64,000 nt of DNA from GCF_056746865.1 NZ_CM163382.1; one strand, 5' to 3'; positions 27,135 to 53,748 are shown, numbered from the stretch's first letter. Numbers and translations are program-made. The notes: generated by a model not told the origin, from the sequence alone.

Positions 27135-27590
27135 TAGACTGGCCCCCTGAATCTCCAGACAACCAATATCACTTAAATAAGTGATAGTCCTGATACAAGT
27201 TTTTAGAGTAGTCATTAGTGAACAGATAATTGTTAACTTAGAACCAGTAAAATGCAAACGACGCACCACGCTGGGAAAATCGCTGCTATTCAGCAGAGTT
27301 TTGTACCGAGAATTGTGGCCAGCCACTTATTGCTCTCGCGTAAGCAGGTATCCCCATCGTTTACCAGTCCAGCACATCTTGTGGTCAGGCAGAAGAAGAG
27401 CAAACTGTTACTGGACTCACTGCATGCATGGTGGAGAAAAATGCCACGCTATCCAAAAATCCAGACTGGGAGAATGGTTCAGCTGTGTACTGAATCAGTG
27501 GGGCGCACTCTGTTATTACAGTGTTGACGGTCAGGCGGAGGCAGACATAATGCCGCGGAAAAAGCCCTTTGTGCCATCTGTCTCGGAAAT
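27135..27590 (+). mobile_element. IS2-group (IS3 family) left-end remnant
   Basis: first ~55 bp (TAGACTGGCCCCCTGAATCTCCAGACAACCAATATCACTTAAATAAGTGATAGTC) nearly identical to the IS2 end at 12468..12522, then a diverged OrfA-like reading frame. Confidence 0.55.
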
Positions 27591-27805
27591 AAAAACTTTA
27601 TGTTCTTCGGCGGCGAGCGCAGTGCACTGTTGTATGGGCTTATCGGCACTTGCCTTCTGAACGACATTGATCCGGAAGCGTATCTGCGCCATATCCTGAG
27701 CGTACTGCCGGAATAACCTTCCAACCGTATTGATGAACTCCTGCCATGGAACGTAGTTCTCACCAATAAATAAGCATCAATATGATTCTCCATTAACGCT
27801 TACCT
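27590..27805 (+). mobile_element. IS66-family right-end fragment (3' end of tnpC plus terminal repeat)
   Basis: encodes ...LLYGLIGTCLLNDIDPEAYLRHILSVLPE*PSNRIDELLPWNVVLTNK; ends in CGCTTAC (reverse of the GTAAGCG IS66 terminus). Confidence 0.55.
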
Positions 27806-27911
27806 TTTCTCAGGCTATTTTTGCTTTTTTTTGCTTTTCCCCGCCACTTTATGGTGATTATCACATCAATATACATCGATAGATATTAACGTAACTGAAG
27901 TGAGGTGAAGC

Positions 27912-29126
27912 ATGAAATTTGAACGCCATCATGAAATATTGAAACGACTCAGTAAATTCGGTTCTGTAAAAGTATCCGATCTGTCCAATAGCCTCAATGT
28001 AACGAAAGAAACTATTAGTTCAGATCTTAATGAACTTGCCAGGCTTGGCTATCTGACTCGATGTCATGGCGGTGCTTTTATCGTCCTAGACTCGCTTGAT
28101 ACTATTGCGAAAAATGAAATCGCTTATGCGCTTGAAAATTATGATACAGCCCAGGGAATAAAAAAAGGCCACTCAACTATGAAAAGTCAAGTATGCGTTA
28201 TTGGTTCGTTTAATGTTGATATCATCAGTTATTTGCCGAGGCTTCCCACTATCGGAGAATCGCTTCTGGCAAGTAATTTTATATTTTCACCGGGGGGAAA
28301 AGGCTGTAACCAGGCGCTGGCAGCAAGCTTTGCCGATACTGATGTTTATTTCATAACAAAAGTAGGTACAGATCACTTTAGTGATTATGCGATCAACTTT
28401 ATGAATTCGTCTAAGATTTATAAAAGTATAATTTATCAAACGAAAGAAACGCAAACCGGAACTGCCACGATCCTTGTTAATGAAGGTACTGGCGATAATG
28501 TTATTGCGATCTATCCCGGTGCCAACATGACAATGTCGTCCGATGAAATAACTATTCAGAAAGAAGCGATTATTAATTCTGATGTCATACTTCTGCAGCT
28601 CGAAACAAATTATACCGCTCTGCAACAAGCGATCACATTGGCGCAAAAAAACAGTATCCCGGTCATTATTAACCCGGCACCCTATAATGATATCGTCAAC
28701 GAACTTATTCAGGATGTTGATTATATCACCCCCAATGAAACAGAAGCTGGTTTACTGTCCGGCATAGACGTACACGATCTTGAATCAGCTAAACGAGCTG
28801 CAGAAGCTATCCACAATAAAGGGGTAAAAAACACGGTTATCACGCTCGGTAGCAAGGGCTCGCTCGCATTTGATGGCAAAAAATTCATTCATTCGCCAGC
28901 GTTTCCAGCGGTCGTTAAAAATACGGCAGGAGCCGGGGATGCGTTTAACGGCTCTCTGGCATCAGGACTTGCGAAAGGAAAATCACTGGAATCAGCACTG
29001 TGTTATGCCAGCGCCTTTGCATCCCTAGCGGTGGAGACAAGCAATGCTTCCGACATGCCTGAACATGAATCTGTGATACATCGAATTCAGAGTATACATT
29101 ATCAGCAAACTATTTTTACGCATTAA
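27912..29126 (+). CDS. DeoR-type HTH regulator fused to a PfkB-family carbohydrate kinase
   Basis: N-terminus SDLSNSLNVTKETISSDLNELARLGYLTRCHGGA (DeoR HTH); C-terminus with TPNETEAGLL and GAGDAFNG (PfkB signatures). Confidence 0.75.
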   Translation: MKFERHHEILKRLSKFGSVKVSDLSNSLNVTKETISSDLNELARLGYLTRCHGGAFIVLDSLDTIAKNEIAYALENYDTAQGIKKGHSTMKSQVCVIGSFNVDIISYLPRLPTIGESLLASNFIFSPGGKGCNQALAASFADTDVYFITKVGTDHFSDYAINFMNSSKIYKSIIYQTKETQTGTATILVNEGTGDNVIAIYPGANMTMSSDEITIQKEAIINSDVILLQLETNYTALQQAITLAQKNSIPVIINPAPYNDIVNELIQDVDYITPNETEAGLLSGIDVHDLESAKRAAEAIHNKGVKNTVITLGSKGSLAFDGKKFIHSPAFPAVVKNTAGAGDAFNGSLASGLAKGKSLESALCYASAFASLAVETSNASDMPEHESVIHRIQSIHYQQTIFTH

Positions 29127-29139
29127 GAAGGGACAGAGA

Positions 29140-29898
29140 ATGAATAACACCAAAAAATCACTAAAAGTGCTCTTTATTGGGGAATCCTGGCATATTCATA
29201 TGATTCATTCAAAAGGATATGACAGTTTTACCTCAAGTAAATATGAAGAAGGTGCGACCTGGTTACTCCAGTGTCTGAAAAATAGTCAGGTAGATGTCAC
29301 CTATATGCCAGCACATACGGTACAAATTGCCTTCCCTGAAGATGTGGCACAGTTAGAACAATATGATGCCATCGTTATTAGTGATATTGGTAGTAATACT
29401 TTCCTGCTACAAAATGATACTTTTTATCAGCTTCGCATAAAACCAAACGCTCTCGAACTGATTAAAGAATATGTGAATAACGGTGGTGGGTTATTGATGA
29501 TTGGCGGCTATCTCTCATTCATGGGAATTGAAGCAAAAGCCAATTATAAAAATACAGTTCTGGCTGATGTGCTCCCGGTTACGATGTTAGATGGTGACGA
29601 TCGTGTCGAAAAACCAGAGGGTGTTATTGCACAGCCATCACAACCTGAACATCCAGTTATTAAAGGGTTCTCTGAATATCCTTTTTTCCTAGGTTATAAC
29701 CGGGCGATCGCTAAAGAAAATGCTGAGGTGGTATTAACAATAAACAACGCTCCATTACTGGTCTTTGGTAACTATCACAACGGGAAAATAGCCTGCTTTA
29801 TGAGTGACTGTTCACCGCACTGGGGTACACAGCAGTTTATGTCCTGGCCGTTCTATACCGCGTTGTGGGTAAATATACTGACTCATATTGCAAGATAA
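29140..29898 (+). CDS. hypothetical protein, possibly class-I glutamine-amidotransferase-like (ThuA-like) fold
   Basis: 252-aa ORF 14 nt after the kinase stop; fold assignment is tentative, from memory only. Confidence 0.5.
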   Translation: MNNTKKSLKVLFIGESWHIHMIHSKGYDSFTSSKYEEGATWLLQCLKNSQVDVTYMPAHTVQIAFPEDVAQLEQYDAIVISDIGSNTFLLQNDTFYQLRIKPNALELIKEYVNNGGGLLMIGGYLSFMGIEAKANYKNTVLADVLPVTMLDGDDRVEKPEGVIAQPSQPEHPVIKGFSEYPFFLGYNRAIAKENAEVVLTINNAPLLVFGNYHNGKIACFMSDCSPHWGTQQFMSWPFYTALWVNILTHIAR

Positions 29899-29954
29899 TA
29901 ATAATAATGGGGTAACTCCAGTTACTCCATTTACTATAATAGAAGGATTGATGT

Positions 29955-30920
29955 ATGAAAAAGAATAAGTACTCAACTCCCTTATGGATGCTTGCCACGA
30001 TTCTTGCGGGTATGCTCTCCCCTATGCAATCAGCGGTGAATGGTCAATTAGGTCACTGGTTACAGGACGGTAATGCATGCGCAGTTATCTCCTTTGCCAG
30101 TGGTTTAGTCGTGATGTTTTTTATTATTATGGCGCGAAAAGAAACCCGGCAACAATTTGCGGCAATTCCTTCTCTGATTAAAAACCGAAAAGTTCCTCTC
30201 TGGAACTGGTTTGCCGGTCTCTGTGGAGCGATGGTGGTATTTTCTGAAGGCGCATCAGCCAGCGCACTCGGGGTCGCAACGTTTCAGACCGCACTGATCT
30301 CCGCGCTATTGCTGTCTGGTTTACTTTGCGATCGCTTTGGTATCGGTGTCGACGAGAAAAAATACTTTACCCCTTATCGCATCATCGGTGCATTATTTGC
30401 GGTTATTGCTACGATTTTTGTTGTGTCACCGCAGTGGCATTCTACCTCTTTCATTTTACTTGCCATTCTTCCGTTCTTAGCTGGTTTGCTTGCAGGATGG
30501 CAGCCCGCTGGAAATGCAAAAGTAGCTGAAGCTACGGGATCCATGCTGGTTTCAATCACCTGGAATTTCATCGTTGGATTTTGTGTTTTAGGCACAGCGC
30601 TAGCTATTCGTGTCGCATTAGGGCACGTCACTGTTCAATTACCAGATGTCTGGTGGATGTATCTTGGCGGCCCGCTTGGACTAATGTCTATCGGTTTAAT
30701 GGCCATTTTGGTCAGAGGTCTTGGGTTACTGATGCTGGGGGTTGCTTCAACGGCGGGCCAGTTACTGGGATCAGTATTGATTGACGTATTAATTCCATCG
30801 CTGGGCAATACCGTTTATCTGGTCACGATCATCGGAACACTGTTTGCACTGGTCGGTGCAATTGTTACCACTATTCCGGAATACAGAGCCTCGAAAACAA
30901 TGAAGAAAATGGAGGTATAA
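29955..30920 (+). CDS. DMT-superfamily membrane transporter (YdcZ/DUF606-like)
   Basis: 321-aa ORF, about 10 TM helices, internally duplicated halves. Confidence 0.6.
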   Translation: MKKNKYSTPLWMLATILAGMLSPMQSAVNGQLGHWLQDGNACAVISFASGLVVMFFIIMARKETRQQFAAIPSLIKNRKVPLWNWFAGLCGAMVVFSEGASASALGVATFQTALISALLLSGLLCDRFGIGVDEKKYFTPYRIIGALFAVIATIFVVSPQWHSTSFILLAILPFLAGLLAGWQPAGNAKVAEATGSMLVSITWNFIVGFCVLGTALAIRVALGHVTVQLPDVWWMYLGGPLGLMSIGLMAILVRGLGLLMLGVASTAGQLLGSVLIDVLIPSLGNTVYLVTIIGTLFALVGAIVTTIPEYRASKTMKKMEV

Positions 30921-30922
30921 TC

Positions 30923-31957
30923 ATGAAAGATTATCTACAAACTGTGACGGGCCCCGTCGCCCGTGAAGATATGGGGCTAACACTTCCTCATGAACATCTG
31001 TTCAACGATCTTTCCTCTGTTGTGGATGCTCCTTGCTATCCTTTTTCACAACGGCTTGTTGATAAAAAAGTCACGGCAGAAATCCAGTGGGCATTAAAAC
31101 ACGATCCTTATTGCTGCGCTGATAATATGGACCGCAAACCTATTGAAGATGTGATCTTCGAAATTAATAACTTTATCTCGCTCGGTGGTCGCACCATTGT
31201 TGATGCCACAGGGTCTGAGTCTATCGGACGAGATGCGCAGGCATTACGAGAAGTCGCATTAAAAACAGGTCTGAATATTGTTGCTTCCTCCGGTCCCTAC
31301 CTGGAAAAATTTGAAAGCCAGAGAATTCATAAAACGGTTGATGAACTGGCGACAACGATCGATAAAGAATTGAATCAAGGGATTGGCGATACGGATATTC
31401 GTGCCGGAATGATCGGTGAAATAGGTGTCTCACCGACATTTACCGAAGCCGAGCATAACAGCTTGCGGGCTGCCTCGCTGGCACAGATTAACAATCCTCA
31501 TGTGGCGATGAATATTCACATGCCGGGCTGGCTTCGTCGCGGTGATGAAGTACTCGACATTGTGTTAGGTGAAATGGGCGTCTCGCCAAATAAAGTCTCT
31601 CTCGCACACTCGGATCCGTCAGGAAAAGACGTGGCGTATCAGCGGAAAATGCTTGATAAAGGTGTCTGGCTGGAATTCGACATGATTGGCCTAGACATTA
31701 CCTTCCCGAAAGAGGGAATAGCGCCAGGGGTGCAGGAGACTGCCGATGCCGTCGCTCATCTCATTGAGTTGGGATACGCCGATCAGCTTGTTCTCAGCCA
31801 CGATGTCTTCCTTAAACAAATGTGGGCTAAAAATGGCGGTAATGGCTGGGGATTTGTTCCAGATGTTTTTCTGGCCTATCTGGCGGAGCGCGGCGTCGAT
31901 AAAACGATCCTCAAAAAACTCTGTATCGATAATCCCGGACGATTATTGACCGCATAA
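30923..31957 (+). CDS. phosphotriesterase-homology protein (amidohydrolase superfamily, Php-like)
   Basis: 344-aa ORF; metal-binding HEH at the N-terminus (LPHEHLF), later His/Asp ligands; start 3 nt after the transporter stop. Confidence 0.75.
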   Translation: MKDYLQTVTGPVAREDMGLTLPHEHLFNDLSSVVDAPCYPFSQRLVDKKVTAEIQWALKHDPYCCADNMDRKPIEDVIFEINNFISLGGRTIVDATGSESIGRDAQALREVALKTGLNIVASSGPYLEKFESQRIHKTVDELATTIDKELNQGIGDTDIRAGMIGEIGVSPTFTEAEHNSLRAASLAQINNPHVAMNIHMPGWLRRGDEVLDIVLGEMGVSPNKVSLAHSDPSGKDVAYQRKMLDKGVWLEFDMIGLDITFPKEGIAPGVQETADAVAHLIELGYADQLVLSHDVFLKQMWAKNGGNGWGFVPDVFLAYLAERGVDKTILKKLCIDNPGRLLTA

Positions 31958-43154: not shown

Positions 43155-44318
43155 GTGAGGTGTATTGTGGGAAAGGAACTGGATGATATCTGCACCAGCT
43201 GTCCGTATATCGATGCTGTAAAACGGCACAAACAACAGCTCGGTGCCATAGAGGAATATACACAGTGGTTAAAAAAAGAACCACGGGCATCTTATTTTTT
43301 TCTGTTCCAGCTGTATACCCGCATTCACAATACATTTTTCTCCCAAAAGCAACAACTCCCGTTCACTCCCGGTGGCACTCACTGCCCGGAACCTGATGTC
43401 ACCCTTCGGGACTTAACGCTTTCCCCTGGCTACCACAGTGATTATGCCCCTCAACCCATTCCGGAGATGGACAGTTCTGCTGTTGTTCCCCCAACTAATG
43501 AAAACACCTCGCCTCCGGAAGATACTCCCGACAACACTCCGGCCGGAGGCAATACCGGACAAGCGGAAAAGACCAGAAACGCAGGACTCACACCCATTCC
43601 TGAAAAACGTTCAGGAATGCCCCCGGAACATCTGCGGTTTGCCACGGGGTTTCCATCGCAACCGAAGATTGCCGGTCCCAGAGAAAAGCCGATGCGCACC
43701 GTGCATCCGGATAAAATCTACCGTGAAATTATATGGTTCTGCTCCAGTTACCTGCTGAAATCCGGACCAGAGGCTACGAGGACGATTATCAACTCAGTAT
43801 TCTCTGAATGGGCCAGCATAAACAATGATTACCCCTCCCCCTTTTCGTGGGTGGACAGCAGGGACAGTGAACAGTGTGACTGGTTATGGAACGCCATGCA
43901 GGTCCGGTGTGTGGGAACCCCGCTGAATCCCCTTACCCCGGAGCAGAAATACTGGTTTGCCTGCGCCACGTTTGATAACTGGGAGGGCTGGAATGAGCAA
44001 CAGGTACAGTTTTTACTGGAAAGTAATCCCAGACGGAACAGAGCGAAGTTTACGCAGGTCTCCTTCCAGGCCCCCAGGATTCAGCATAAAGCGATTCTTC
44101 TTGATGAGCTGAAAAGTGCCCGGGAGCAACAAAAAAGGCGTGATGAACGTGCTGATGGTTCCGTCCCTCTGAAACTGTCCGGAAAAATCCACAAACAGCT
44201 TGAAAGTATTGCCCGAAGTCGTGGTGTCCTCCCAAAAAAACTGCTGAATGAAATGATTGAGCAGGCGTACCATGATTTGGTGGCAACCAGGCAGAACAGC
44301 CAAATCGATTCCAGATAA
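43155..44318 (+). CDS. hypothetical protein with a Pro/Thr-rich central linker
   Basis: 387-aa ORF; start uncertain (GTG 43155 or 43167); no recognised domain. Confidence 0.5.
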   Translation: MRCIVGKELDDICTSCPYIDAVKRHKQQLGAIEEYTQWLKKEPRASYFFLFQLYTRIHNTFFSQKQQLPFTPGGTHCPEPDVTLRDLTLSPGYHSDYAPQPIPEMDSSAVVPPTNENTSPPEDTPDNTPAGGNTGQAEKTRNAGLTPIPEKRSGMPPEHLRFATGFPSQPKIAGPREKPMRTVHPDKIYREIIWFCSSYLLKSGPEATRTIINSVFSEWASINNDYPSPFSWVDSRDSEQCDWLWNAMQVRCVGTPLNPLTPEQKYWFACATFDNWEGWNEQQVQFLLESNPRRNRAKFTQVSFQAPRIQHKAILLDELKSAREQQKRRDERADGSVPLKLSGKIHKQLESIARSRGVLPKKLLNEMIEQAYHDLVATRQNSQIDSR

Positions 44319-44839
44319 TTTCAGACAGATATTATTTCCGTGAATCCCCCGCCACCTTTCCGGTGCGCGGGGTTTTGTCTTTTTTCACCGGGAATACATG
44401 TATGAATCCGTCTGATGCCATTGAGGCAATTGAAAAACCGCTCTCCTCCCTGCCTTACTCACTTTCCCGTCACATCCTGGAACATCTGCGCAAACTCACC
44501 AGTCACGAACCCGTGCCTGGCATTATGGGTAAAAGCGGGGCCGGTAAATCCTCACTCTGTAATGCGCTGTTTCAGGGGGAGGTCACCCCGGTCAGTGATG
44601 TTCACGCCGGCCCCCGGGAAGTGCAGCGCTTCCGTCTTGCAAAATGGCATCTGAATCGATCGCAGTTTGGCATTCGAATCGATCATGATTTGGCATCCAT
44701 CTCCGATCACAGTTTGGCATCACAATCGATCACGATTTGGCATGCTTCCGATCATTGATTGGCATCCTGCCAGTCACTCCGGGAATTAACTCTTTTCACC
44801 ACAGTCTCCATTGCCGTGTTTAAACCAGTGGAGACGTCA

Positions 44840-46405
44840 ATGTCCAGAAAGAGAAAATCCAGGAGCACTATGGAAACCTGTTTTAAGATTCTTCAGCTCA
44901 AGTTCGACAAGAAGCTGACTAACCGTTGTATCGGACTGACGTTACACATCAGCGCCTCAACCGTTTTTGAGGTTCTTGCCCGCTTCAAAGCCTCTTCTCT
45001 GTCATGGCCATTACCTGCTGATATATCCCATGACACGCTGGAGAAACTCATTTTTCCGCCCAAAGACACCTTTGCATCAGAGCTTGTAATGCCTGACATG
45101 TTGTACCTCGATACGGAAATGAGAAAACCAGGTGTGACGCGGCAACTGTTGTGGATGGAATACAAGGCACAGGCGGGTAACAAAGCGATGGGATACTCGC
45201 ACTTCTGCCGTTGCTACCGGGAGTGGAAAAAAACGCGACGTCTCTCCATGCGCCAGGAGCATCGTGCCGGCGAAAAGCTTTTTATCGACTTCTGTGGTCC
45301 TACGGTTCCTGTTATTAATCCGGACACCGGTGAGATACGCCGCGTGGCAATCTTCGTGGCCGTAATGGGGGCGTCCAACTATACCTACGTTGAAGCGTGC
45401 GAAGGTCAGGACATGATGTCATGGTTAAATGCCCACAGCCGTTGCCTGACCTTCCTGGGCGGCGTACCGAAGCTGCTCATCCCCGATAACCTCAGAAGCG
45501 CAGTGAAAAAGGCCGATCGATATGAGCCTGTCATCAACGACAGTTATCAGGCACTGGCTGAGCACTATGGCACGGTTATCATCCCGGCCCGACCACGCAA
45601 ACCTAAAGATAAACCAAAAGCAGAAAACGGCGTCCTCATCGTCGAACGATGGCTTCTTGCCCGCATCCGTAATGAAACCTTCCACACGCTCAGGGCGCTG
45701 AATGCGCGCCTTAGGGAGTTACTGACAGACATGAATAACCGGCCAATGAAGGGGTACGGCAATCAAACCCGTGCAGAACGCTTCCGCATACTGGATGCGC
45801 CAGCACTCTCTCCGCTGCCTCTGGCACCTTATGAATACACGGAATACAAAGCTGTGAAGGTTGGCCCTGACTACCACGTTGAATATGCCCGTCACTGGTA
45901 CTCCGTTCCACACGAACTGGTCGGTCAGCGTCTGTCACTGAAGGCGGGGCAGTCGGTGGTACAGCTCTGGCACAAGGGGCAGTGTGTGGCGCAACATCCG
46001 CGCAGCACACATGAATATAAACACACAACCAATCCGCTTCACATGCCAGAGCGCCACCGGCAGCACGGGACATGGACACCGGAACGCCTGATCGAGCAGG
46101 GAAAACGTACGGGCCCGTCCACAGGCCGGGTGGTTGAATCCATGCTGAAGGCAAAACCCCATCCGGAACTGGCTTATCGTGCAGTTCTGGGGCTGCTGGC
46201 ACTTCAGAAAAAATACGGCCCGGAACGGCTGGAAAAGGCCTGTTACGTTGCCCTGCACTATAACGCCCCTGACAGACGCTTTATCGACAATCTGCTGCGT
46301 CACCATCGGGAGAACCTGGAGCTTCCATTATCCCGCCAGGGCGAACAACATCCGGCATATGCTTCAGAGCATGAAAACCTGCGTGGTCCGGGCTACTACC
46401 ACTGA
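44840..46405 (+). CDS. istA: IS21-family transposase IstA
   Basis: ORF 44759..46405; start placed at MSRKRKS (44840), uncertain. Confidence 0.8.
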   Translation: MSRKRKSRSTMETCFKILQLKFDKKLTNRCIGLTLHISASTVFEVLARFKASSLSWPLPADISHDTLEKLIFPPKDTFASELVMPDMLYLDTEMRKPGVTRQLLWMEYKAQAGNKAMGYSHFCRCYREWKKTRRLSMRQEHRAGEKLFIDFCGPTVPVINPDTGEIRRVAIFVAVMGASNYTYVEACEGQDMMSWLNAHSRCLTFLGGVPKLLIPDNLRSAVKKADRYEPVINDSYQALAEHYGTVIIPARPRKPKDKPKAENGVLIVERWLLARIRNETFHTLRALNARLRELLTDMNNRPMKGYGNQTRAERFRILDAPALSPLPLAPYEYTEYKAVKVGPDYHVEYARHWYSVPHELVGQRLSLKAGQSVVQLWHKGQCVAQHPRSTHEYKHTTNPLHMPERHRQHGTWTPERLIEQGKRTGPSTGRVVESMLKAKPHPELAYRAVLGLLALQKKYGPERLEKACYVALHYNAPDRRFIDNLLRHHRENLELPLSRQGEQHPAYASEHENLRGPGYYH

Positions 46406-46421
46406 CAGAAGGAACAACAGT

Positions 46422-47177
46422 ATGAGTGATAACCTGTTAAACAAACTGACCCAACTGAAACTCCCGGCGATGGCCGGGAGCCTGATACGGCAGCGGGAAA
46501 CGCCTCAGACCTACGACGAACTGTCGTTCGAGGAAAGGCTGACGCTGCTGGTTGATGACGAGCTTCTGAGCAGGGAAAACAGCCGTGTGGCACGGTTGAG
46601 AAAAAATGCCGGCCTGAAATACCAGGCAACACCGGAAGGGCTGCGCTATCCGGCCTCAAGAGGTCTGCGGGCTGAACAGATGAGAGAACTGCTGAACGGC
46701 CACTACATAACCCACAGGAAAAACCTGCTGATAACCGGTCCGACAGGATGTGGCAAGAGCTGGATAGCCAATGCGCTGGGCGAACAGGCATGTCGACAGA
46801 AACACAGCGTCCGGTACTGTAGAACCGGGCGATTACTGGAACAACTGGCTCAGGGACGTGTTGATGGCAGCTGGCTGAAATATCTGAAACAGTTGCAAAA
46901 AATACAGGTTCTAATCCTGGACGATCTGGGGCTGGAACAGTTAAGTAACGCCCAGTGTAATGACCTTCTGGAGCTCATAGAGGATCGTTACGGACAAAGC
47001 AGCACGATAGTGGTAAGCCAGTTCCCGGTAGATAAATGGCATGGTCTGATGGAGAACCCAACAACAGCAGATGCCATCCTGGACAGACTGGTACATAACT
47101 CACACCGGGTGGTCCTTCAGGGAGAGTCACTGAGGAAAAATCCCCCGGTAGTGGAAAGCAGCGAAAAAACGCGTTAA
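46422..47177 (+). CDS. istB: IS21-family ATP-binding helper IstB
   Basis: start ATG 46422 (MSDNLLNKL); Walker A GPTGCGKS; DExx-like LILDDLG. Confidence 0.85.
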   Translation: MSDNLLNKLTQLKLPAMAGSLIRQRETPQTYDELSFEERLTLLVDDELLSRENSRVARLRKNAGLKYQATPEGLRYPASRGLRAEQMRELLNGHYITHRKNLLITGPTGCGKSWIANALGEQACRQKHSVRYCRTGRLLEQLAQGRVDGSWLKYLKQLQKIQVLILDDLGLEQLSNAQCNDLLELIEDRYGQSSTIVVSQFPVDKWHGLMENPTTADAILDRLVHNSHRVVLQGESLRKNPPVVESSEKTR

Positions 47178-48038
47178 AAAGCGGTAGAAAAAGTTAAGTT
47201 CCCGGTTGATCGAATGGATGCGAATCGCTGATCGGACTTCGATGCCAATCCGTGATCGAATAGAGCGGAATACGCATCCGTCTGAATGGCCATGGTCACA
47301 GCATGGTTATCACTGACCTGCCCGGGGTGGGCGAGAGCCGGGACAGGGATGCAGAGTATGAAGCCCTGTACCGTGACATTCTGCTCGAACTGGACCTGGT
47401 ACTGTGGCTGATTAAAGCCGATGACCGTGCCCTGTCTGTGGATGAGTATTTCTGGCGACACATCCTGCACCGGGGACATCAGCGGGTACTGTTTGTGGTG
47501 ATGCAGGCCGATAAAACGGAGCCCTGCCATGAATGGGATATGGCCGGTATTCAGCCTTCTCCCGCACAGGCACAGAACATTCGCGAAAAAACGGAGGCGG
47601 TATTCCGTCTGTTCCGGCCCGTACATCGGGTTGTTGCCGTATCGGCCCGCACCGGCTGGGAACTGGATACGCTGGTCAGTGCGCTCATGACAGCACTTCC
47701 CGACCATGCCGCCAGTCCCCTGATGACCCGCCTGCAGGACGAGCTGCGCACGGAGTCTGTCCGGTCTCAGGCCCGTGAACAGTTTACCGGTGCGGTGGAC
47801 CGGATATTTGACACGGCGGAGAGCGTCTGCATTGCCTCTGTTGCACGCACGGTTCTGCGCGCCGTCCGTGACTCGGTGGTCTCTGTTGCCCGCGCGGTAT
47901 GGAACTGGATTTTCTTCTGAACCCGGTGGTGATGTACCAGGCTGTTGTTACAGATTTTTAACTCCATGAAAACACTATGCAAACGCAGCCATACCCGGGT
48001 TGTCCCCTTGCGTTGTGTTTCTCAAGTTAATAGAATAC

Positions 48039-48080
48039 ATCGATCGTTACTATCATATCGATCGTTATAAACGATCGTTT
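48039..48080 (+). promoter_or_regulatory. three operator-like repeats with palindromic CGATCG cores upstream of the dynamin-like gene
   Basis: ATCGATCGTTA at 48039 and 48057, AACGATCGTTT at 48070; AGGAAGG RBS at 48124..48130. Confidence 0.45.
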
Positions 48081-48137
48081 GTAGTAAATGACCTCCTCCG
48101 TGGTTGTCATGAAAATGCGTCTTAGGAAGGTTAAATA

Positions 48138-50534
48138 ATGCACGAAAAGAACATCGCCCTGCTTTGTGATGAAGCCGACCGACTTTTGCAACTGAACATT
48201 AATCTGCTCCGGCAAATGGTTGAGGAGCCAGATGTGTTATCTGACAGTAAGAACGAAAACAGACTGCTTTTTGATAAACAGAAAGCACTGAAAAGAATTG
48301 AGGAGCTGGAGGGCGAACAAATCAAAACCGCCCGCAGGGAGATGGTGCTGGCTGTTGTCGGCACGATGAAAGCAGGCAAATCAACCACCATCAACGCCAT
48401 TGTGGGGCAGGAAATTCTGCCTAACCGTAACCGCCCCATGACCTCTGTACCGACGCTCATCCGCCACGTTCCCGGAAAAACTGAGCCGGTTCTCCATCTG
48501 GAACATATTCAGCCTGTCCGCAATTTATTAATCACACTGCAGGAAAAACTCGCCACCCCGGCAGGACAGCAGGTCGCACAGACCCTGCAGCAAACCGGGG
48601 ATACCCGCGAACTGCTGGATATTCTGACGGATGATGGCTGGCTCAAAAATGAATACCACGGGGAGGAGGAAATCTTTACCGGACTGGCATCGTTAAACGA
48701 TCTGGTTCGTCTTGCTGCGGCAATGGGGACTGAATTTCCTTTTGATGAATACGCAGAAGTGCAGAAACTGCCGGTGATCGACGTGGAATTCAGCCATCTG
48801 GTGGGGATGGATGCATGCCAGGGAACACTCACACTGCTGGATACCCCCGGCCCTAATGAGGCCGGACAACCGCAGATGGAAGTGATGATGCGGGATCAAC
48901 TGCAGAAAGCCTCTGCGGTTCTGGCTGTGATGGATTACACCCAGATGAACTCAAAAGCGGATGAAGACGTCCGTAAAGAGCTTAATGCCATTGCTGACGT
49001 ATCAGCCGGCCGCCTGTTTGTACTGGTCAATAAATTTGATGAGAAAGACCGCAATGGCGATGGGGCAGATGCCGTACGCCAGAAAGTTCCGGCAATGCTG
49101 AACAGCGATGTGCTGCCCGCCTCCCGCGTTTATCCCGGATCCTCACGCCAGGCATACCTGGCTAACCGTGCGCTTCATGAGTTACGGAAAAACGGAACCC
49201 TTCCTGTTGATGAAGCCTGGGTCGATGATTTTATCAGAGGTGCCTTCGGTTGCATGAAAAAAGAATACGTCTGTAAAGACAGTGAACTGGCAACTGAAGG
49301 GGCGACAGACCTGTGGGAAGGCTCACTTATCGATCAACTGATAACGGAAGTCATACAGAGCTCACATTCCAGAGCTGCGGCACTGGCGGTTGACTCTGCC
49401 GCCGCAAAACTGATGCAGAATGCAGAAAATATCAGTGAATACCTGTTGTTACGCCATCAGGGGCTACAGCAAAGCATTCAGTCACTGCAGTCGCATATCA
49501 CCAGCCTGCTTGCGGATATCCGGGAAATCGCGGACTGTCAGGAGCAGATGACCACTGATGTCAGAATGGCCATGGAGGAGATCGATACTAAAACCCGGGA
49601 ATTACTGACGGGGGTCTGCACCTCACTGGAAGAGGAGCTGAATGACTATTTCAGAAGCGGTAAACGCAAAGAACAGCAAATGCTGGAGGAAGAAGACGCA
49701 GAACAACGAAGGTCTCAGTCCGGATTATGGGGGAAAATTTCTCAATGGTCCGGTATCAACAACCAGGGCCGGGAGGATTACAGGAAACGAGATTTTGCCC
49801 CGGACAGCCCCGAAATAAAATTCAGTGATCGCAGGGAAGCCCTTGAACTGATGACGCAAATCGAATCGACCGTGACCAGCCTGCACCGTGAGGCTGAAGC
49901 ACAGTTCCGGCCTGAGCTGGAGAAAATCGTCAGCGGGATTGAAACAGGTTTTCGTGGCACGGCCCTGTACGCCACAGAAAACATTGCCGGTCGCATCAAT
50001 GCCCGCCTGGAGGATGAGGGCTTTACCGTAAAAATCAGTTTTCCGGCAGTCAGCCAGTTACAGACCCGGCTCGCGGTAAAAATAAATCTGAGTGCGCTTA
50101 TGGAGGAAAGAACGGAGACCGTCACCCGTCGCCGTCGGCAGAGTGGCGTATGGGGAACCGTTTGTCGATGGTTTGGCACCAGTGACCTGGGCTGGGAAAA
50201 CTATGACGAGGATGTGAGTCGCAGCGTGATCAATATCAACAAGGTCAGAGAGGAAGTTATGTCACTGACCCGGGCATATTTCGGGGAGCTGCAGGCATCC
50301 ATTGAGCAGGATATTAACCAGCCCGTCCGCCAGGAAATCGATGCCTTTTTCTGCGCATTCAGGGAGAAAGTTGAACAACTGCGTAACACGCTGATTCAGA
50401 GCTCTGAAGATCATAAACGCGATCAGCAGGCGCAGGAACGGCTTACCGGGCGACTTCAGGCATTAAATGAAAGGGTTCCTGAGCTCATTACTGACAGTAA
50501 GGCGCTGAGGGAAGAGCTGGAGACAATGCTGTGA
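48138..50534 (+). CDS. dynamin-like GTPase (bacterial dynamin-like protein)
   Basis: 798 aa; G1 GTMKAGKSTTINAIVG, G3 LLDTPGPNE, G4 VLVNKFD; long helical C-terminal half. Confidence 0.85.
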   Translation: MHEKNIALLCDEADRLLQLNINLLRQMVEEPDVLSDSKNENRLLFDKQKALKRIEELEGEQIKTARREMVLAVVGTMKAGKSTTINAIVGQEILPNRNRPMTSVPTLIRHVPGKTEPVLHLEHIQPVRNLLITLQEKLATPAGQQVAQTLQQTGDTRELLDILTDDGWLKNEYHGEEEIFTGLASLNDLVRLAAAMGTEFPFDEYAEVQKLPVIDVEFSHLVGMDACQGTLTLLDTPGPNEAGQPQMEVMMRDQLQKASAVLAVMDYTQMNSKADEDVRKELNAIADVSAGRLFVLVNKFDEKDRNGDGADAVRQKVPAMLNSDVLPASRVYPGSSRQAYLANRALHELRKNGTLPVDEAWVDDFIRGAFGCMKKEYVCKDSELATEGATDLWEGSLIDQLITEVIQSSHSRAAALAVDSAAAKLMQNAENISEYLLLRHQGLQQSIQSLQSHITSLLADIREIADCQEQMTTDVRMAMEEIDTKTRELLTGVCTSLEEELNDYFRSGKRKEQQMLEEEDAEQRRSQSGLWGKISQWSGINNQGREDYRKRDFAPDSPEIKFSDRREALELMTQIESTVTSLHREAEAQFRPELEKIVSGIETGFRGTALYATENIAGRINARLEDEGFTVKISFPAVSQLQTRLAVKINLSALMEERTETVTRRRRQSGVWGTVCRWFGTSDLGWENYDEDVSRSVININKVREEVMSLTRAYFGELQASIEQDINQPVRQEIDAFFCAFREKVEQLRNTLIQSSEDHKRDQQAQERLTGRLQALNERVPELITDSKALREELETML

Positions 50535-51436
50535 CTTCACCATTTATTCAACAAATTGCTGATAACCGGGTATGTCAGGTACTCACCTGTCTTCCTGAAA
50601 AATTTGTGGTTGATTTCGCAAACGGAATCGATGTTGCACAGGAGCATATCCGCACGGCCGGAGAGCGCACGTTCTTCCGGCGTTTAAAAGAGGGGCTGAC
50701 CGGCGAAGGCGCTGCACGGCAGAATGCCATCAATGCGTCGCTTGCACAGGGCGTTGAGGCGTCCCTGCGCTGGCTGACGGAGATGACAACGTCACTTGCC
50801 ACCACAAACTACGCGATTACCCGGGTAAACGACAGGGTCAGTTCACTGGTCAGTGATACAGCCAGGCTGGCGCATTATTCCGCAGATACGCGGGAGCAGT
50901 TACTCACCCTGGCCGATCAGGTTCACCATAAACTGAATCATCTTGAAGAAAAACTCCACCGTGTTGACCAGGTTCAGCGGGCGCAGTTACATCTTGAGCA
51001 GATATTCTCATGGTGGAGCGCCGGGCGATATGCGTCATTTTCCCCTGCCGGACGTTGTTATGTGGCACTTGAAGAGCTTCGCTGGGGCGCGTTTGGTGAT
51101 GTGATACGTCAGAGCGAAACAGGCCAGGTTAACCAGCTACTGGATATTCTCAGACATAAAGCATTAACGCAGATGGCACAGGAGAGTGGCGGTAGTGCAA
51201 CCGTGCGTCTGAACACTCTGGACTGGCTTGGTGGTCAGGGCCGGGAGCAGGCAGATAACGAGTGGCATGACGCGATTAACTGGCTGGGAGACTGGTGCAG
51301 TGAAGAGCAGCATCCGGTGATCTGGTCAACCACGCAGGCTGCAGAACACTTACCGGTTCGCATGCCTCGCCTCTGCTCTGCAGAACGCCTCTCTGAAAGT
51401 ATGGTCGATGAAATATTTCAGAAGGGGGCTGCATGA
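50531..51436 (+). CDS. hypothetical helical protein translationally coupled to the dynamin-like GTPase
   Basis: 301 aa; GTG start overlaps upstream TGA (GTGA at 50531..50534); no recognised motif. Confidence 0.65.
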   Translation: MTSPFIQQIADNRVCQVLTCLPEKFVVDFANGIDVAQEHIRTAGERTFFRRLKEGLTGEGAARQNAINASLAQGVEASLRWLTEMTTSLATTNYAITRVNDRVSSLVSDTARLAHYSADTREQLLTLADQVHHKLNHLEEKLHRVDQVQRAQLHLEQIFSWWSAGRYASFSPAGRCYVALEELRWGAFGDVIRQSETGQVNQLLDILRHKALTQMAQESGGSATVRLNTLDWLGGQGREQADNEWHDAINWLGDWCSEEQHPVIWSTTQAAEHLPVRMPRLCSAERLSESMVDEIFQKGAA

Positions 51437-52503
51437 GTACAGAAATGAAAACGGGGCTGGTGCTGTCCGGTGGCGGGGCGGTGGGCGCTTATCAGGCGGG
51501 AGTGGTTAAGGCACTGGCAGAGTGTGGTACACAGATCAGCATGGTTTCAGGGGCCAGCATTGGCGCATTCAATGGTGCCATTATCGCGGCCTCTCCCGAT
51601 CTGTCAGAAGCTGCCGTACGCCTGGAGGCGCTCTGGGATCATCTGGGGAATAATCAGGTGCTGTCGGTAAACAGATTGGTTTACTTTTCATTGCTGAAAA
51701 AATTGTTCCAGGCAATGAACCTCTGCCAGATCCCCGGACGTGCAGGAGCACTGCTTACGACGCTTCTTCGCCATATATCGACAATCAACGGGTTTGACAA
51801 TCTGATGGCTCAGCCGTTGTTGTCAGATGAGCCCCTGACAGCGCTGATGGATCATTATCTTGATACTGATGCTCTGGCAGACGGGCTACCGCTGTATGTG
51901 TCGCTGTACCCCACAGAAGGGGGCATGCAGGATATTATTGACTGCATTCGTGCTGAACTGGGTGTCGGAACCACGAAAAACGCCGTTTTTCAGCATATCC
52001 AGAGCCTGCCCCGCGGACAGCAGAAAGAGGCTCTGCTTGCGTCAGCCGCGCTGCCCCTGCTGTTCCGTCCCCGTGAGGTTCAGGGGACAATGTTCGGTGA
52101 TGGTGGTATGGGAGGATGGCGAAATATGCAGGGAAATACCCCTGTGACGCCTCTGGTCGATGCCGGATGCAATATGGTGATTGTGACGCATCTGAGTGAG
52201 GGTTCTTTATGGGATCGCCAGGCTTTTCCGGACACCACAATCCTTGAGATCCGTCCCCGGAAAAGGCTGAAATATGCAGGTGATGGTGGCAACAGCGGCG
52301 GTCTGCTCAGTTTTACATCGGCACATACCGACGCCTGGCGTCAGCAGGGCTATGAAGACACGATGCTGGCGATGGAGCATATCCGGAAACCGCTGGCAGC
52401 ACGTCAGGCACTGACCCGGTCAGAGGCGGTATTGCAGAAAAGCCTGGATATAACGGAAGAGGCAGATTTGGCACTGAGAAACGCGATGGCCCGGATTAAA
52501 TAA
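51433..52503 (+). CDS. patatin-like phospholipase
   Basis: 356 aa; GGGAVGAYQAG oxyanion motif, GASIGA (GxSxG) nucleophile, DGG catalytic Asp; ATGA overlap with the upstream gene. Confidence 0.85.
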   Translation: MSTEMKTGLVLSGGGAVGAYQAGVVKALAECGTQISMVSGASIGAFNGAIIAASPDLSEAAVRLEALWDHLGNNQVLSVNRLVYFSLLKKLFQAMNLCQIPGRAGALLTTLLRHISTINGFDNLMAQPLLSDEPLTALMDHYLDTDALADGLPLYVSLYPTEGGMQDIIDCIRAELGVGTTKNAVFQHIQSLPRGQQKEALLASAALPLLFRPREVQGTMFGDGGMGGWRNMQGNTPVTPLVDAGCNMVIVTHLSEGSLWDRQAFPDTTILEIRPRKRLKYAGDGGNSGGLLSFTSAHTDAWRQQGYEDTMLAMEHIRKPLAARQALTRSEAVLQKSLDITEEADLALRNAMARIK

Positions 52504-52833
52504 AGACGCCCCAAAGAAACGCCACCGCCTGTGGTGGTGTTTTTCCTGTCTGGTGTTATTGAAAATATTTTCATATATATATTACCTGAGAGAAAGTTTT
52601 ACCCCTCACCTGTCAATTCACTCACTGGAAATTTAATTATGAAATTACCTGTAAAGTTATTAATGAGCCTTATATCTCTGGTCAGCGTTATTGCACGTGC
52701 CGGGGAATATAAAAATTACAGCCGGGATGAAATAAAATACTGGCGATATACATCATACAAGGGGGGGAAACTTCCGGAAGGTTTCACTGATGAGAAATTT
52801 TCCAGCGCCATTTACAACGGAAGAATATTTACA

Positions 52834-53322
52834 ATGAAACGTTTACATACCCTTATGTTATTTCTGGCGGTTCTGTTCACGGGCTTTAACTTTAACGCAG
52901 AAGCGGCTACCGTAAAACAAGCTCTTAGTTGTAACCCGGAAGCCTGGGCTGAACAACCTGGAGCGTGTCCATCAACGTACGAGTTGTACGAAGGTGACGC
53001 TACCTACAAAGCCGCTATCGACAAAGCATTAAAACCGGTCGGACTGAGCGGCATGTTCGGTAAAGGCGGCTATATGGATGGCCCTGGTGGAGGTATCACG
53101 CCAGTAAACATTAACGGTACAGTCTGGTTCCAGGGCGACGGTTGCAAAGCCAATACCTGCGGCTGGGACTTTATCGTAACACTCTATAACCCAAAAACCC
53201 ATGAAGTTGTTGGCTACCGTTACTTTGGTTTAGATGACCCGGCCTACCTGGTTTGGTTCGGTGAAATTGGCGTGCATGAATTCGCGTATCTGGTGAAAAA
53301 CTACGTAGCTGCGGTTAACTAA
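52834..53322 (+). CDS. periplasmic protein, possibly Ivy-like (lysozyme-inhibitor family)
   Basis: signal peptide MKRLHTLMLFLAVLFTGFNFNAEA; GCKANTCGWDF resembles the Ivy CKPHDCG loop; same frame stays open upstream to 52531. Confidence 0.45.
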   Translation: MKRLHTLMLFLAVLFTGFNFNAEAATVKQALSCNPEAWAEQPGACPSTYELYEGDATYKAAIDKALKPVGLSGMFGKGGYMDGPGGGITPVNINGTVWFQGDGCKANTCGWDFIVTLYNPKTHEVVGYRYFGLDDPAYLVWFGEIGVHEFAYLVKNYVAAVN

Positions 53323-53337
53323 TTTAAGGAGTCTATC

Positions 53338-53748
53338 ATGAAAACTTTTATCAAAACTTTACTCGTTGCTGTAACTATTCTGTTCTCTGTCTTCGCTACT
53401 GCGAAACAAGTAAAACTGCCAAATAACATCAAATACGTTAATACTACAGAAGCGTTTTCCTGTACCGAAATTGACGGTATGAATTGCCAGACAAAGAATC
53501 AGTTCAACTATAAAGATAACAGCTATGTTTTCGTGCTTGAACGTGGTGGTGCCTGGTGCTACGACTACACTGTCTCGGTAGTTAACCTGAAAACCGGGAA
53601 AGCACAAATGATTGAATACGGGGACAATCAACTGTGCTCAGGTAGCAACAAACCGTTCTTCGAAATCAAAAATGGCGTACCGACGGTAGGAGTCATCGAC
53701 ACATCCGGAAAACCTGTCGTTGTAGCCCAGGACAAACTTAAAATCTAA
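53338..53748 (+). CDS. small exported hypothetical protein
   Basis: 136 aa with N-terminal signal peptide and four Cys. Confidence 0.55.
   Translation: MKTFIKTLLVAVTILFSVFATAKQVKLPNNIKYVNTTEAFSCTEIDGMNCQTKNQFNYKDNSYVFVLERGGAWCYDYTVSVVNLKTGKAQMIEYGDNQLCSGSNKPFFEIKNGVPTVGVIDTSGKPVVVAQDKLKI

Follow-up and report, generated by a model that had tools for sequence, protein, structure and literature searches.

Results

A three-gene operon with overlapping reading frames

The subject of this work is a 4.4-kb operon of three genes found in a stretch of 64,000 nucleotides from NZ_CM163382.1 (assembly GCF_056746865.1), which we call the window. An original prediction, made by a model reading this DNA, had described there a translationally coupled operon encoding a dynamin-like GTPase, a helical partner and a patatin-like phospholipase, in the cargo slot of a CP4-44-like island. 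The prediction of three translationally coupled genes (Table 1) is confirmed, and the catalytic motifs of their products are intact. The list of open reading frames (ORFs) gives exactly the predicted boundaries, each product has a Pfam match, and a 100%-identical copy in RefSeq has the same three coding sequences annotated, under the names 'dynamin family protein', 'diguanylate cyclase regulator RdcB family protein' and 'patatin-like phospholipase family protein'. The coupling can be read directly from the sequence: the stop of gene 1 overlaps the start of gene 2 by 4 nt in a GTGA (50531-50534), the stop of gene 2 overlaps the start of gene 3 in an ATGA (51433-51436), and a purine-rich, Shine-Dalgarno-like sequence lies upstream of all three starts. 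That this triad constitutes a functional module is, in our view, nearly certain.

Table 1. Features of the triad and of its surroundings, in window positions.
Feature	Position (nt)	Strand	Remarks
Gene 1	48138-50534	+	798 aa, ATG start; RdcA/CrfC-like dynamin-like GTPase
Gene 2	50531-51436	+	301 aa, GTG start; YjcZ/RdcB-family all-helical partner
Gene 3	51433-52503	+	356 aa, ATG start; patatin-like phospholipase with conserved C-terminal extension
Terminator-like signal	~52520-52547	+	Hairpin, then T-run, at the operon end; consensus scan only
Switch-like region	48026-48085	+	Apparent homologue, by alignment, of the agn43 (flu/cah) Dam/OxyR phase-variation switch; 3 GATC sites
Hypothetical ORF	43155-44318		387 aa, upstream of the YeeP-like gene
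YeeP-like GTPase gene	44363-47920		Split by the insertion sequence
IS21-family element	44638-47272		~2.6 kb
istA-like ORF	44759-46405		Within the IS21-family element
istB-like ORF	ends 47177		Within the IS21-family element
Small ORFs	52639-53322, 53338-53748		Directly 3' of the operon; lower GC
Metabolic genes	27135-31123		~4 kb missing from NZ_CP091773 at the same locus

Gene 1 encodes a paralogue of RdcA

The GTPase assignment of gene 1 is borne out by a match to Pfam Dynamin_N (1.6e-17, model positions 1-167 of 168) and by a complete set of motifs conserved in 25 orthologues: G1 GTMKAGKS (GxxxxGKS, containing K81), G2 Thr102, G3 DTPGPNE and G4 NKFD. In the predicted model a GTPase domain (residues ~68-350) is joined to a long helical stalk with a beta-hairpin at its tip (~655-699), a dynamin-superfamily fold, with the stalk by which that superfamily is recognised, that resembles SynDLP, mitofusin and IniA. 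The hairpin carries a conserved basic and Trp-rich motif, TVTRxRRxSGxWGxxCxWFxTxDWGWExY, which is partly kept in RdcA. Neither a transmembrane or hydrophobic segment nor a hydrophobic paddle is found in gene 1, whose highest 19-residue Kyte-Doolittle mean is 1.16. Comparison with the sequences of the PDB yielded nothing past the P-loop of BDLP, and a homologue search with gene 1 returned only near-identical E. coli alleles.

The likeness of genes 1 and 2 to the chromosomal crfC(yjdA)-yjcZ pair of E. coli K-12, now rdcA-rdcB, had been pointed out in the original prediction, and rightly so. Gene 1 is 33% identical to RdcA (YjdA/CrfC) over 744 residues (E 9e-121) and gene 2 is 30% identical to RdcB (YjcZ; E 2e-37). 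Gene 1 also matches the NCBIfam CrfC model NF007368 over its whole length, with 556 bits against an equivalog cut-off of 1146, which makes it a paralogue of RdcA and not an orthologue.

The relation between the two systems is suggested by a neighbour-joining tree of the YjcZ family, midpoint-rooted and without support values, in which K-12 RdcB belongs to a small clade of seven representatives whose sister group consists of enterobacterial triad sequences and which is nested in the family at large. The two members of this clade that we checked both adjoin yjdM, as in K-12; one has no downstream patatin gene, and the contig of the other ends right after YjcZ. On the most parsimonious reading of these sequences, RdcAB appears to derive from the triad, as an offshoot that became fixed in the chromosome and has no lipase; this likely derivation is an addition of the present analysis.

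A YjcZ-family protein coupled to a patatin lipase

Gene 2 had been described as helical and devoid of any recognisable motif. The latter does not hold: it is a clear member of the Pfam family YjcZ (PF13990, 4.7e-70, 271 of 272 model positions). Its helical nature is upheld by an all-alpha AlphaFold2 model (pLDDT 86, pTM 0.87), for which we found no specific solved structural relative, PDB sequence searches giving only coiled-coil noise (coronavirus spike HR1, designed coils). The family is small, with 327 representative clusters among 1.84 billion proteins.

Gene 3 is a patatin, as had been proposed (Pfam Patatin, 7.4e-24). The G13-G14-G15 loop, S42 in the GxSxG motif (GASIG) and D223 in DGG are invariant across 16 orthologues of 46-64% identity, among which a C-terminal extension of ~120 residues is also conserved. 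The Gly-rich loop reads GGGAVGAY, with Val in place of the usual Arg/Lys of GGGxxG. The nearest solved relatives by sequence are PlpD, VipD and ExoU. The stop-start overlap between genes 2 and 3 is retained at every locus checked.

In E. coli the patatin gene often occurs in truncated form: many copies are alleles of 233-262 aa (for instance 262 and 254 aa) that cover 64-74% of the protein at 94-100% identity and count hundreds of member sequences each. Some of them are misnamed 'ferredoxin reductase'. Their abundance suggests that the lipase has been recurrently inactivated.

The triad is widespread and is built around a YjcZ-patatin core

The three genes travel together well beyond the window. 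The operon is present in 2442 of 5426 complete E. coli genomes (45%), O157:H7, O104:H4 and sequence type 131 (ST131) among them, nearly always on the chromosome, in up to five copies per genome and with 93-100% identity. The same dynamin-YjcZ-patatin order is found in Pectobacterium, Vibrio vulnificus, Pseudomonas fluorescens and a metagenome, and, among the species representatives of GTDB, at 23 of the 80 loci with the closest patatins. The latter belong to Proteobacteria (E. albertii, Budvicia, Serratia, Aquaspirillum, Yanghanlia, Oceanospirillaceae, Amphritea, Methylococcales, four Pseudomonas, Acinetobacter, Moraxella), to three cyanobacteria, to the Firmicutes Cytobacillus and Paenibacillus, and to a member each of the Campylobacteraceae and the Bacteroidia. 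The non-redundant set amounts to 27 triad loci. The triad gave a single edge hit in 2.9 million viral contigs, in effect an absence, and is therefore not a phage gene. More distant patatins occur without genes 1 and 2. Exceptions among close patatins are a clade of shorter Synergistaceae enzymes plus a few broken loci. The Synergistaceae proteins, of ~320 aa and in unrelated contexts, are the closest patatins that lack genes 1 and 2, and they do not speak against the linkage.

A search that starts from YjcZ agrees with this. We sampled six representatives of YjcZ that lie outside the RdcB clade and share 25-36% identity with gene 2; in every one, the start of a downstream patatin gene overlaps the YjcZ stop. 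The upstream partner varies, a single dynamin being the usual case, while the pair stays, and for this reason we regard YjcZ-patatin as the invariant core. One variant is a protein of 532 aa (P0204; locus L090, 6001-8630) in which a JukA domain (DUF3944; PADLOC, 8e-74) is fused to YjcZ, followed by an overlapping patatin gene and no dynamin. By domain homology, this fusion ties the YjcZ-patatin pair to what is known as a jumbo-phage sensor. A core with exchangeable sensors, JukA included, is an addition of the present analysis.

Other variants deserve mention. The fusion locus itself adjoins parE/parC on a 1.4-Mb contig. In two Acinetobacter loci (L018, 1930-3522; L044, 2137-3609) a short dynamin paralogue of 491-531 aa, matching the CrfC model at 2e-122 in L018, lies between a WYL regulator and gene 1, and in a metagenomic locus (L124, 4739-7069) a second dynamin of 776 aa lies downstream of the patatin gene; such second dynamins are reminiscent of the paired DLP1/DLP2 and LeoB/LeoC. 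In Acinetobacter sp. KCTC 92772 (L020, 3852-8089) the dynamin is replaced, between a WYL regulator and YjcZ-patatin, by an unrelated protein of 413 aa that has no NCBIfam or PADLOC match.

A putative agn43-type switch precedes the triad

Within the 218 nt upstream of gene 1, three CGATCG sites are clustered at 48041-48077 (GATC at 48042, 48060 and 48073), an arrangement that occurs once in the window and in 0 of 100 shuffles. The surrounding region aligns with the regulatory region of K-12 flu (agn43) at 43 of 61 positions and with that of O157 cah at 46 of 61, that is, about as well as flu and cah align with each other (46 of 61). All three GATC sites are in register with those of flu and cah, their spacing being 18 + 13 nt here and 19 + 13 nt in cah, a TAGAAT hexamer resembling a -10 element (~48030-48035) is conserved, and the annotated start of IsrC, the leader RNA of K-12 flu, aligns to 48042. 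By alignment, then, the region is a homologue of the agn43-type Dam/OxyR switch, a likeness reported here as new. It differs from agn43 in what follows: the triad takes the place of the autotransporter, and the long flu leader is replaced by ~60 nt before the ATG. In agn43, the GATC sites overlap the OxyR site, giving rise to heritable ON/OFF phase variation (PMC3764049).

Copies from E. coli and E. albertii retain the switch-like region, and 1978 of the 5426 genomes have it joined to gene 1. Where the adhesin Cah/Ag43 is present (O157:H7, locus L120, 4890-5001; avian pathogenic E. coli BEN5202, locus L117), the triad starts 110 nt past the adhesin stop. A simple scan of this spacer found no promoter-like or terminator-like signal, so that adhesin and triad may be co-transcribed. 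As the triad lies either behind an agn43-type region or behind Ag43/Cah itself, it is downstream of a known or predicted switch of this type in both arrangements.

Island setting and neighbouring genes

The window locus is CP4-44, between cobUST and yeeA/sbmC/his, which confirms the proposed island setting. The notion of a cargo slot stands only in part: the triad does lie on a CP4-44 island, not in a hypervariable slot but as a common component of this island family, present in 45% of complete E. coli genomes. Its place on the E. coli islands is fixed, the order being a YeeP-like GTPase gene, an optional Ag43/Cah, the triad, variable small ORFs, DUF932, antirestriction, RadC, DUF987 and CbeA/CbtA. 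In the window the YeeP-like gene is interrupted by an IS21-family element; in NZ_CP091773, otherwise identical at this locus, IS100 lies at a different position of the same gene. We discarded the YeeP-like GTPase as a partner of the triad: it is an island backbone gene, broken here, and its domain MMR_HSR1 occurs in only 4 of the 149 flank proteins of the 27 loci. We likewise discarded the two small ORFs following the operon (together 52639-53748) as extra components, since neither the O157 and BEN5202 copies nor the loci of other taxa contain them. They have signal-peptide-like N-termini, are present, disrupted by an insertion sequence, in an ST131 copy, and have no NCBIfam or PADLOC family match; they may be the extra two genes of an up-regulated 'five-gene cluster' in strain MP1.

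A Pfam census of the 149 flank proteins is headed by WYL (9) and WCX (6). WYL regulators occur in 9 of the 27 loci, in several of them directly upstream of the operon, and this recurrent regulator beside the triad is a further addition of our analysis. Defence genes are frequent companions. Outside E. coli, the BREX (bacteriophage exclusion) genes brxL/pglZ, BrxR and McrB are neighbours at three separate loci; among other loci of the triad or of YjcZ-patatin, one has McrBC and a type I methylase S subunit and another EcoRV restriction-modification. In E. coli, a type I restriction-modification system neighbours the triad of ZH177, and EcoKI and Druantia are found in the triad context of MP1 (PMC12922286). 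The triad travels across phyla on islands rich in defence genes.

Three further observations concern the surroundings. An ATPase of ~700 aa with two AAA domains stands with a WYL/WCX regulator beside the triad in L008 (9681-12980) and L125 (1-2677), and L007 (1-807) has an ATPase like it in the vicinity of a BrxR-type WYL regulator; the ATPase-WYL/WCX pair may be a separate, co-localised system. The hypothetical protein (so named in RefSeq) encoded upstream of the YeeP-like gene has no NCBIfam or PADLOC match. Finally, the segment missing from NZ_CP091773 belongs to a cluster of metabolic genes (PfkB kinase, phosphotriesterase-related protein, DMT transporter, glutamine amidotransferase) that adjoins an ISL3 element.

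Discussion

The triad belongs to no named system, as the original prediction had supposed: for the three proteins, PADLOC and NCBIfam return only sub-threshold matches to LeoBC, ZorA, CapV, RssA and VpdC. It had also been presented as an unrecognised architecture, and here the claim has to be narrowed, for the operon is unnamed and has nevertheless already been noticed. Our literature searches on dynamin, patatin and defence found it mentioned in only two papers, both of 2026. In a transcriptome of strain MP1, such operons are termed a putative dynamin defence system, and their regulation does not follow the lytic-lysogenic decision (PMC12922286). By analogy with Ag43, for which clonal ON/OFF bias is a described pitfall (PMC3764049), the MP1 pattern may alternatively reflect such a bias at a phase-variable promoter, should MP1 carry one. 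In the supplement of DefensePredictor (Science, 2026; PMC13092281), E. coli 'dynamin family protein' alleles of 794 and 798 aa are listed as 'Predicted novel defense gene', with values of 6.7-7.7 in the first score column, and one row gives a linked coordinate where the gene-3 end of the 4366-nt triad is expected.

The reading that we favour, to which we give a probability of roughly one half, is that the triad serves abortive infection through a lipase gated by a GTPase and is expressed in a phase-variable manner. We infer that the RdcA-like GTPase of gene 1 and the RdcB-like partner of gene 2 would together control the patatin lipase of gene 3. Because the YjcZ-patatin pair is invariant and translationally coupled, gene 2 could be the adaptor that contacts the lipase, binding and tethering or regulating it. 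Gene 1 would act as sensor and switch. Its closest characterised relative, RdcA, is a dynamin-like GTPase, soluble and able to bind RdcB (Pfiffer et al., 2019, PMC6510439); the nucleotide-free RdcA/RdcB complex binds and activates the MASE1 domain of the diguanylate cyclase DgcE, GTP is inhibitory, and RdcA K82A is active while T103D is inactive (PMC6510439). By analogy, a fall in GTP, or a membrane or protein cue caused by the phage, might release or activate the lipase. The active enzyme would then hydrolyse inner-membrane phospholipids, and the infected cell would arrest or die before the release of phage, an outcome akin to the abortive infection brought about by CapV of the cyclic oligonucleotide-based antiphage signalling system (CBASS). 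Transcription in the window would most likely start at the agn43-type promoter. Opposition of Dam and OxyR at its three GATC sites would render expression phase-variable, so that only part of the population would carry an armed and potentially costly system.

Several considerations weigh against this reading. The only characterised relatives, RdcA and RdcB, regulate cyclic di-GMP (c-di-GMP) and biofilm, not immunity, and the sensing of GTP is an analogy drawn from a paralogue that shares one third of its residues with gene 1. OxyR binding and phase switching at the triad promoter are proposed from homology. In E. coli the triad accompanies the adhesin Ag43/Cah and shares its switch, which would fit a role at the surface or in biofilms equally well. 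The association with defence genes was judged from ~35 loci and is not a genome-wide statistic. The PADLOC 2023 models do not recognise the triad, and the word 'dynamin' appears neither in the main text of the DefensePredictor paper nor in its supplementary file with the DS-numbered systems. Weighing all this, we lean slightly towards the triad being a defence system of some kind. The most ambitious version is doubtful in our eyes, namely that it represents a new class of immune system in which a GTPase/YjcZ pair reads the GTP pool or a phage cue and unleashes a lipase, with bet-hedging of the Ag43 type, and of which RdcA/RdcB would be a domesticated, lipase-less descendant.

Among the alternatives, a role in membrane maintenance or repair is unlikely. 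The dynamin would bind damaged or highly curved membranes, as DynA of Bacillus subtilis does, and the lipase would carry out local lipid remodelling, such as the production of lysolipids for fusion or fission, thereby protecting the cell or delaying its lysis. The predicted fold of gene 1, close to the membrane-fusing SynDLP, mitofusin and IniA, speaks for it, as does its conserved basic and Trp-rich tip, which could touch the membrane, and DynA offers a precedent of protection at the population level (cited in PMC12922286). Yet RdcA is described as soluble and works by protein-protein contact, gene 1 has neither paddle nor transmembrane segment, patatin effectors on defence islands are usually executioners, and the JukA-YjcZ-patatin variant dispenses with a dynamin altogether. 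The kinship with RdcA/RdcB raises another explanation, which we consider rather unlikely: that the triad is a signalling device modulating c-di-GMP, biofilm or surface properties in step with the phase-variable Ag43, its lipase being a lipid-modifying output. Genes 1 and 2 are full-length paralogues of RdcA and RdcB, the E. coli operon sits after Ag43/Cah or behind an agn43-type switch, and between cah and gene 1 of O157 there is no terminator-like signal in the scan; these points speak for it. However, triads occur in Cyanobacteria, Bacilli and Bacteroidia in unrelated contexts without Ag43, their neighbours elsewhere being defence genes and WYL regulators, and the orthologues of RdcAB form a small, nested, yjdM-syntenic clade without a lipase.

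The truncated patatin alleles that circulate in E. coli suggest that the lipase is costly, and this, together with the CbtA/CbeA toxin-antitoxin genes that the islands already hold and the fact that two of the nearest patatins of solved structure, ExoU and VipD, are secreted toxins, makes room for a reading of the operon as cargo for addiction, competition or virulence. The lipase would be a toxin that genes 1 and 2 restrain, stabilising the island in the manner of a toxin-antitoxin pair, or it would act on other cells. We deem this improbable: none of the three proteins has a signal peptide, no secretion system is adjacent, and the operon is conserved in free-living cyanobacteria. Toxin-antitoxin behaviour and defence by abortive infection are, moreover, not mutually exclusive.

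The matter is of some consequence, as the operon is present in nearly half of the sequenced E. coli and in several phyla, and others have flagged it as a candidate defence system without giving it a name. If it is one, it would embody an undescribed sensor-effector logic, in which a dynamin-like GTPase and an adaptor gate a lipase, and it would link bacterial dynamins mechanistically to immunity. A YjcZ-patatin core with exchangeable partners (a dynamin, two dynamins or JukA) provides a handle on what the sensors detect. The agn43-type switch suggests that this candidate defence system could be phase-variable together with a major adhesin. Lastly, RdcA and RdcB, the regulators of the master diguanylate cyclase DgcE, are recast as probable descendants of a mobile lipase system.

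How the triad stands among known systems can be seen by comparing them in turn. With RdcA-RdcB it shares full-length homology of two proteins, an operon of overlapping genes in which the YjcZ-family gene directly follows that of the GTPase, and the residues K81 and T102, which correspond to the K82 and T103 studied in RdcA. They differ in that K-12 rdcAB occupies the core yjdM locus and is followed by proP, whereas the window copy is on the mobile CP4-44 island and its gene 2 is translationally coupled to a third gene, that of the patatin; the known target DgcE also belongs to RdcAB. Eleos ('Dynamins'; LeoA + LeoBC) likewise brings dynamin-superfamily GTPases to defence islands, and LeoBC/LeoB is the nearest known defence protein to the gene-1 alleles in the DefensePredictor table. 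The PADLOC match of gene 1 to LeoBC is nonetheless marginal (E 8.6e-5, 19.8 bits, ~60 residues at the P-loop, no segment of it passing by itself), LeoA gives none, and Eleos has neither a YjcZ protein nor a lipase.

On the side of the effector, CapV of CBASS has in common with gene 3 the patatin fold, the Ser-Asp dyad, a predicted target in membrane phospholipids and a position beside a sensor on defence islands. Gene 3 scores only 18.3 bits against a cut-off of 200 with CBASS_lipase, and 14-20 bits with the phospholipase effector models of PADLOC; the triad has no cyclase among its window neighbours and no nucleotide-binding domain, and its control would pass through protein partners and not through a cyclic nucleotide. 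The Legionella pair VipD-Rab5 provides a conceptual precedent, as there a GTPase allosterically activates a patatin phospholipase. VipD is among the solved patatins closest to gene 3 by sequence, a similarity limited to the N-terminal catalytic motifs, and it differs in being a secreted effector activated by a small GTPase of the host. A link to a phage sensor comes from Juk. Its preprint reports that JukA, which senses jumbo phages, occurs in fusion or in combination with a Ras-like GTPase, a patatin or a coiled-coil domain, and the triad is connected to Juk by the relative that fuses JukA to YjcZ and is followed by an overlapping patatin gene. On this comparison, the operon is best filed as a combination of kinds already known, in which a bacterial dynamin-like GTPase is joined by a patatin effector and a switch of the Ag43 type.

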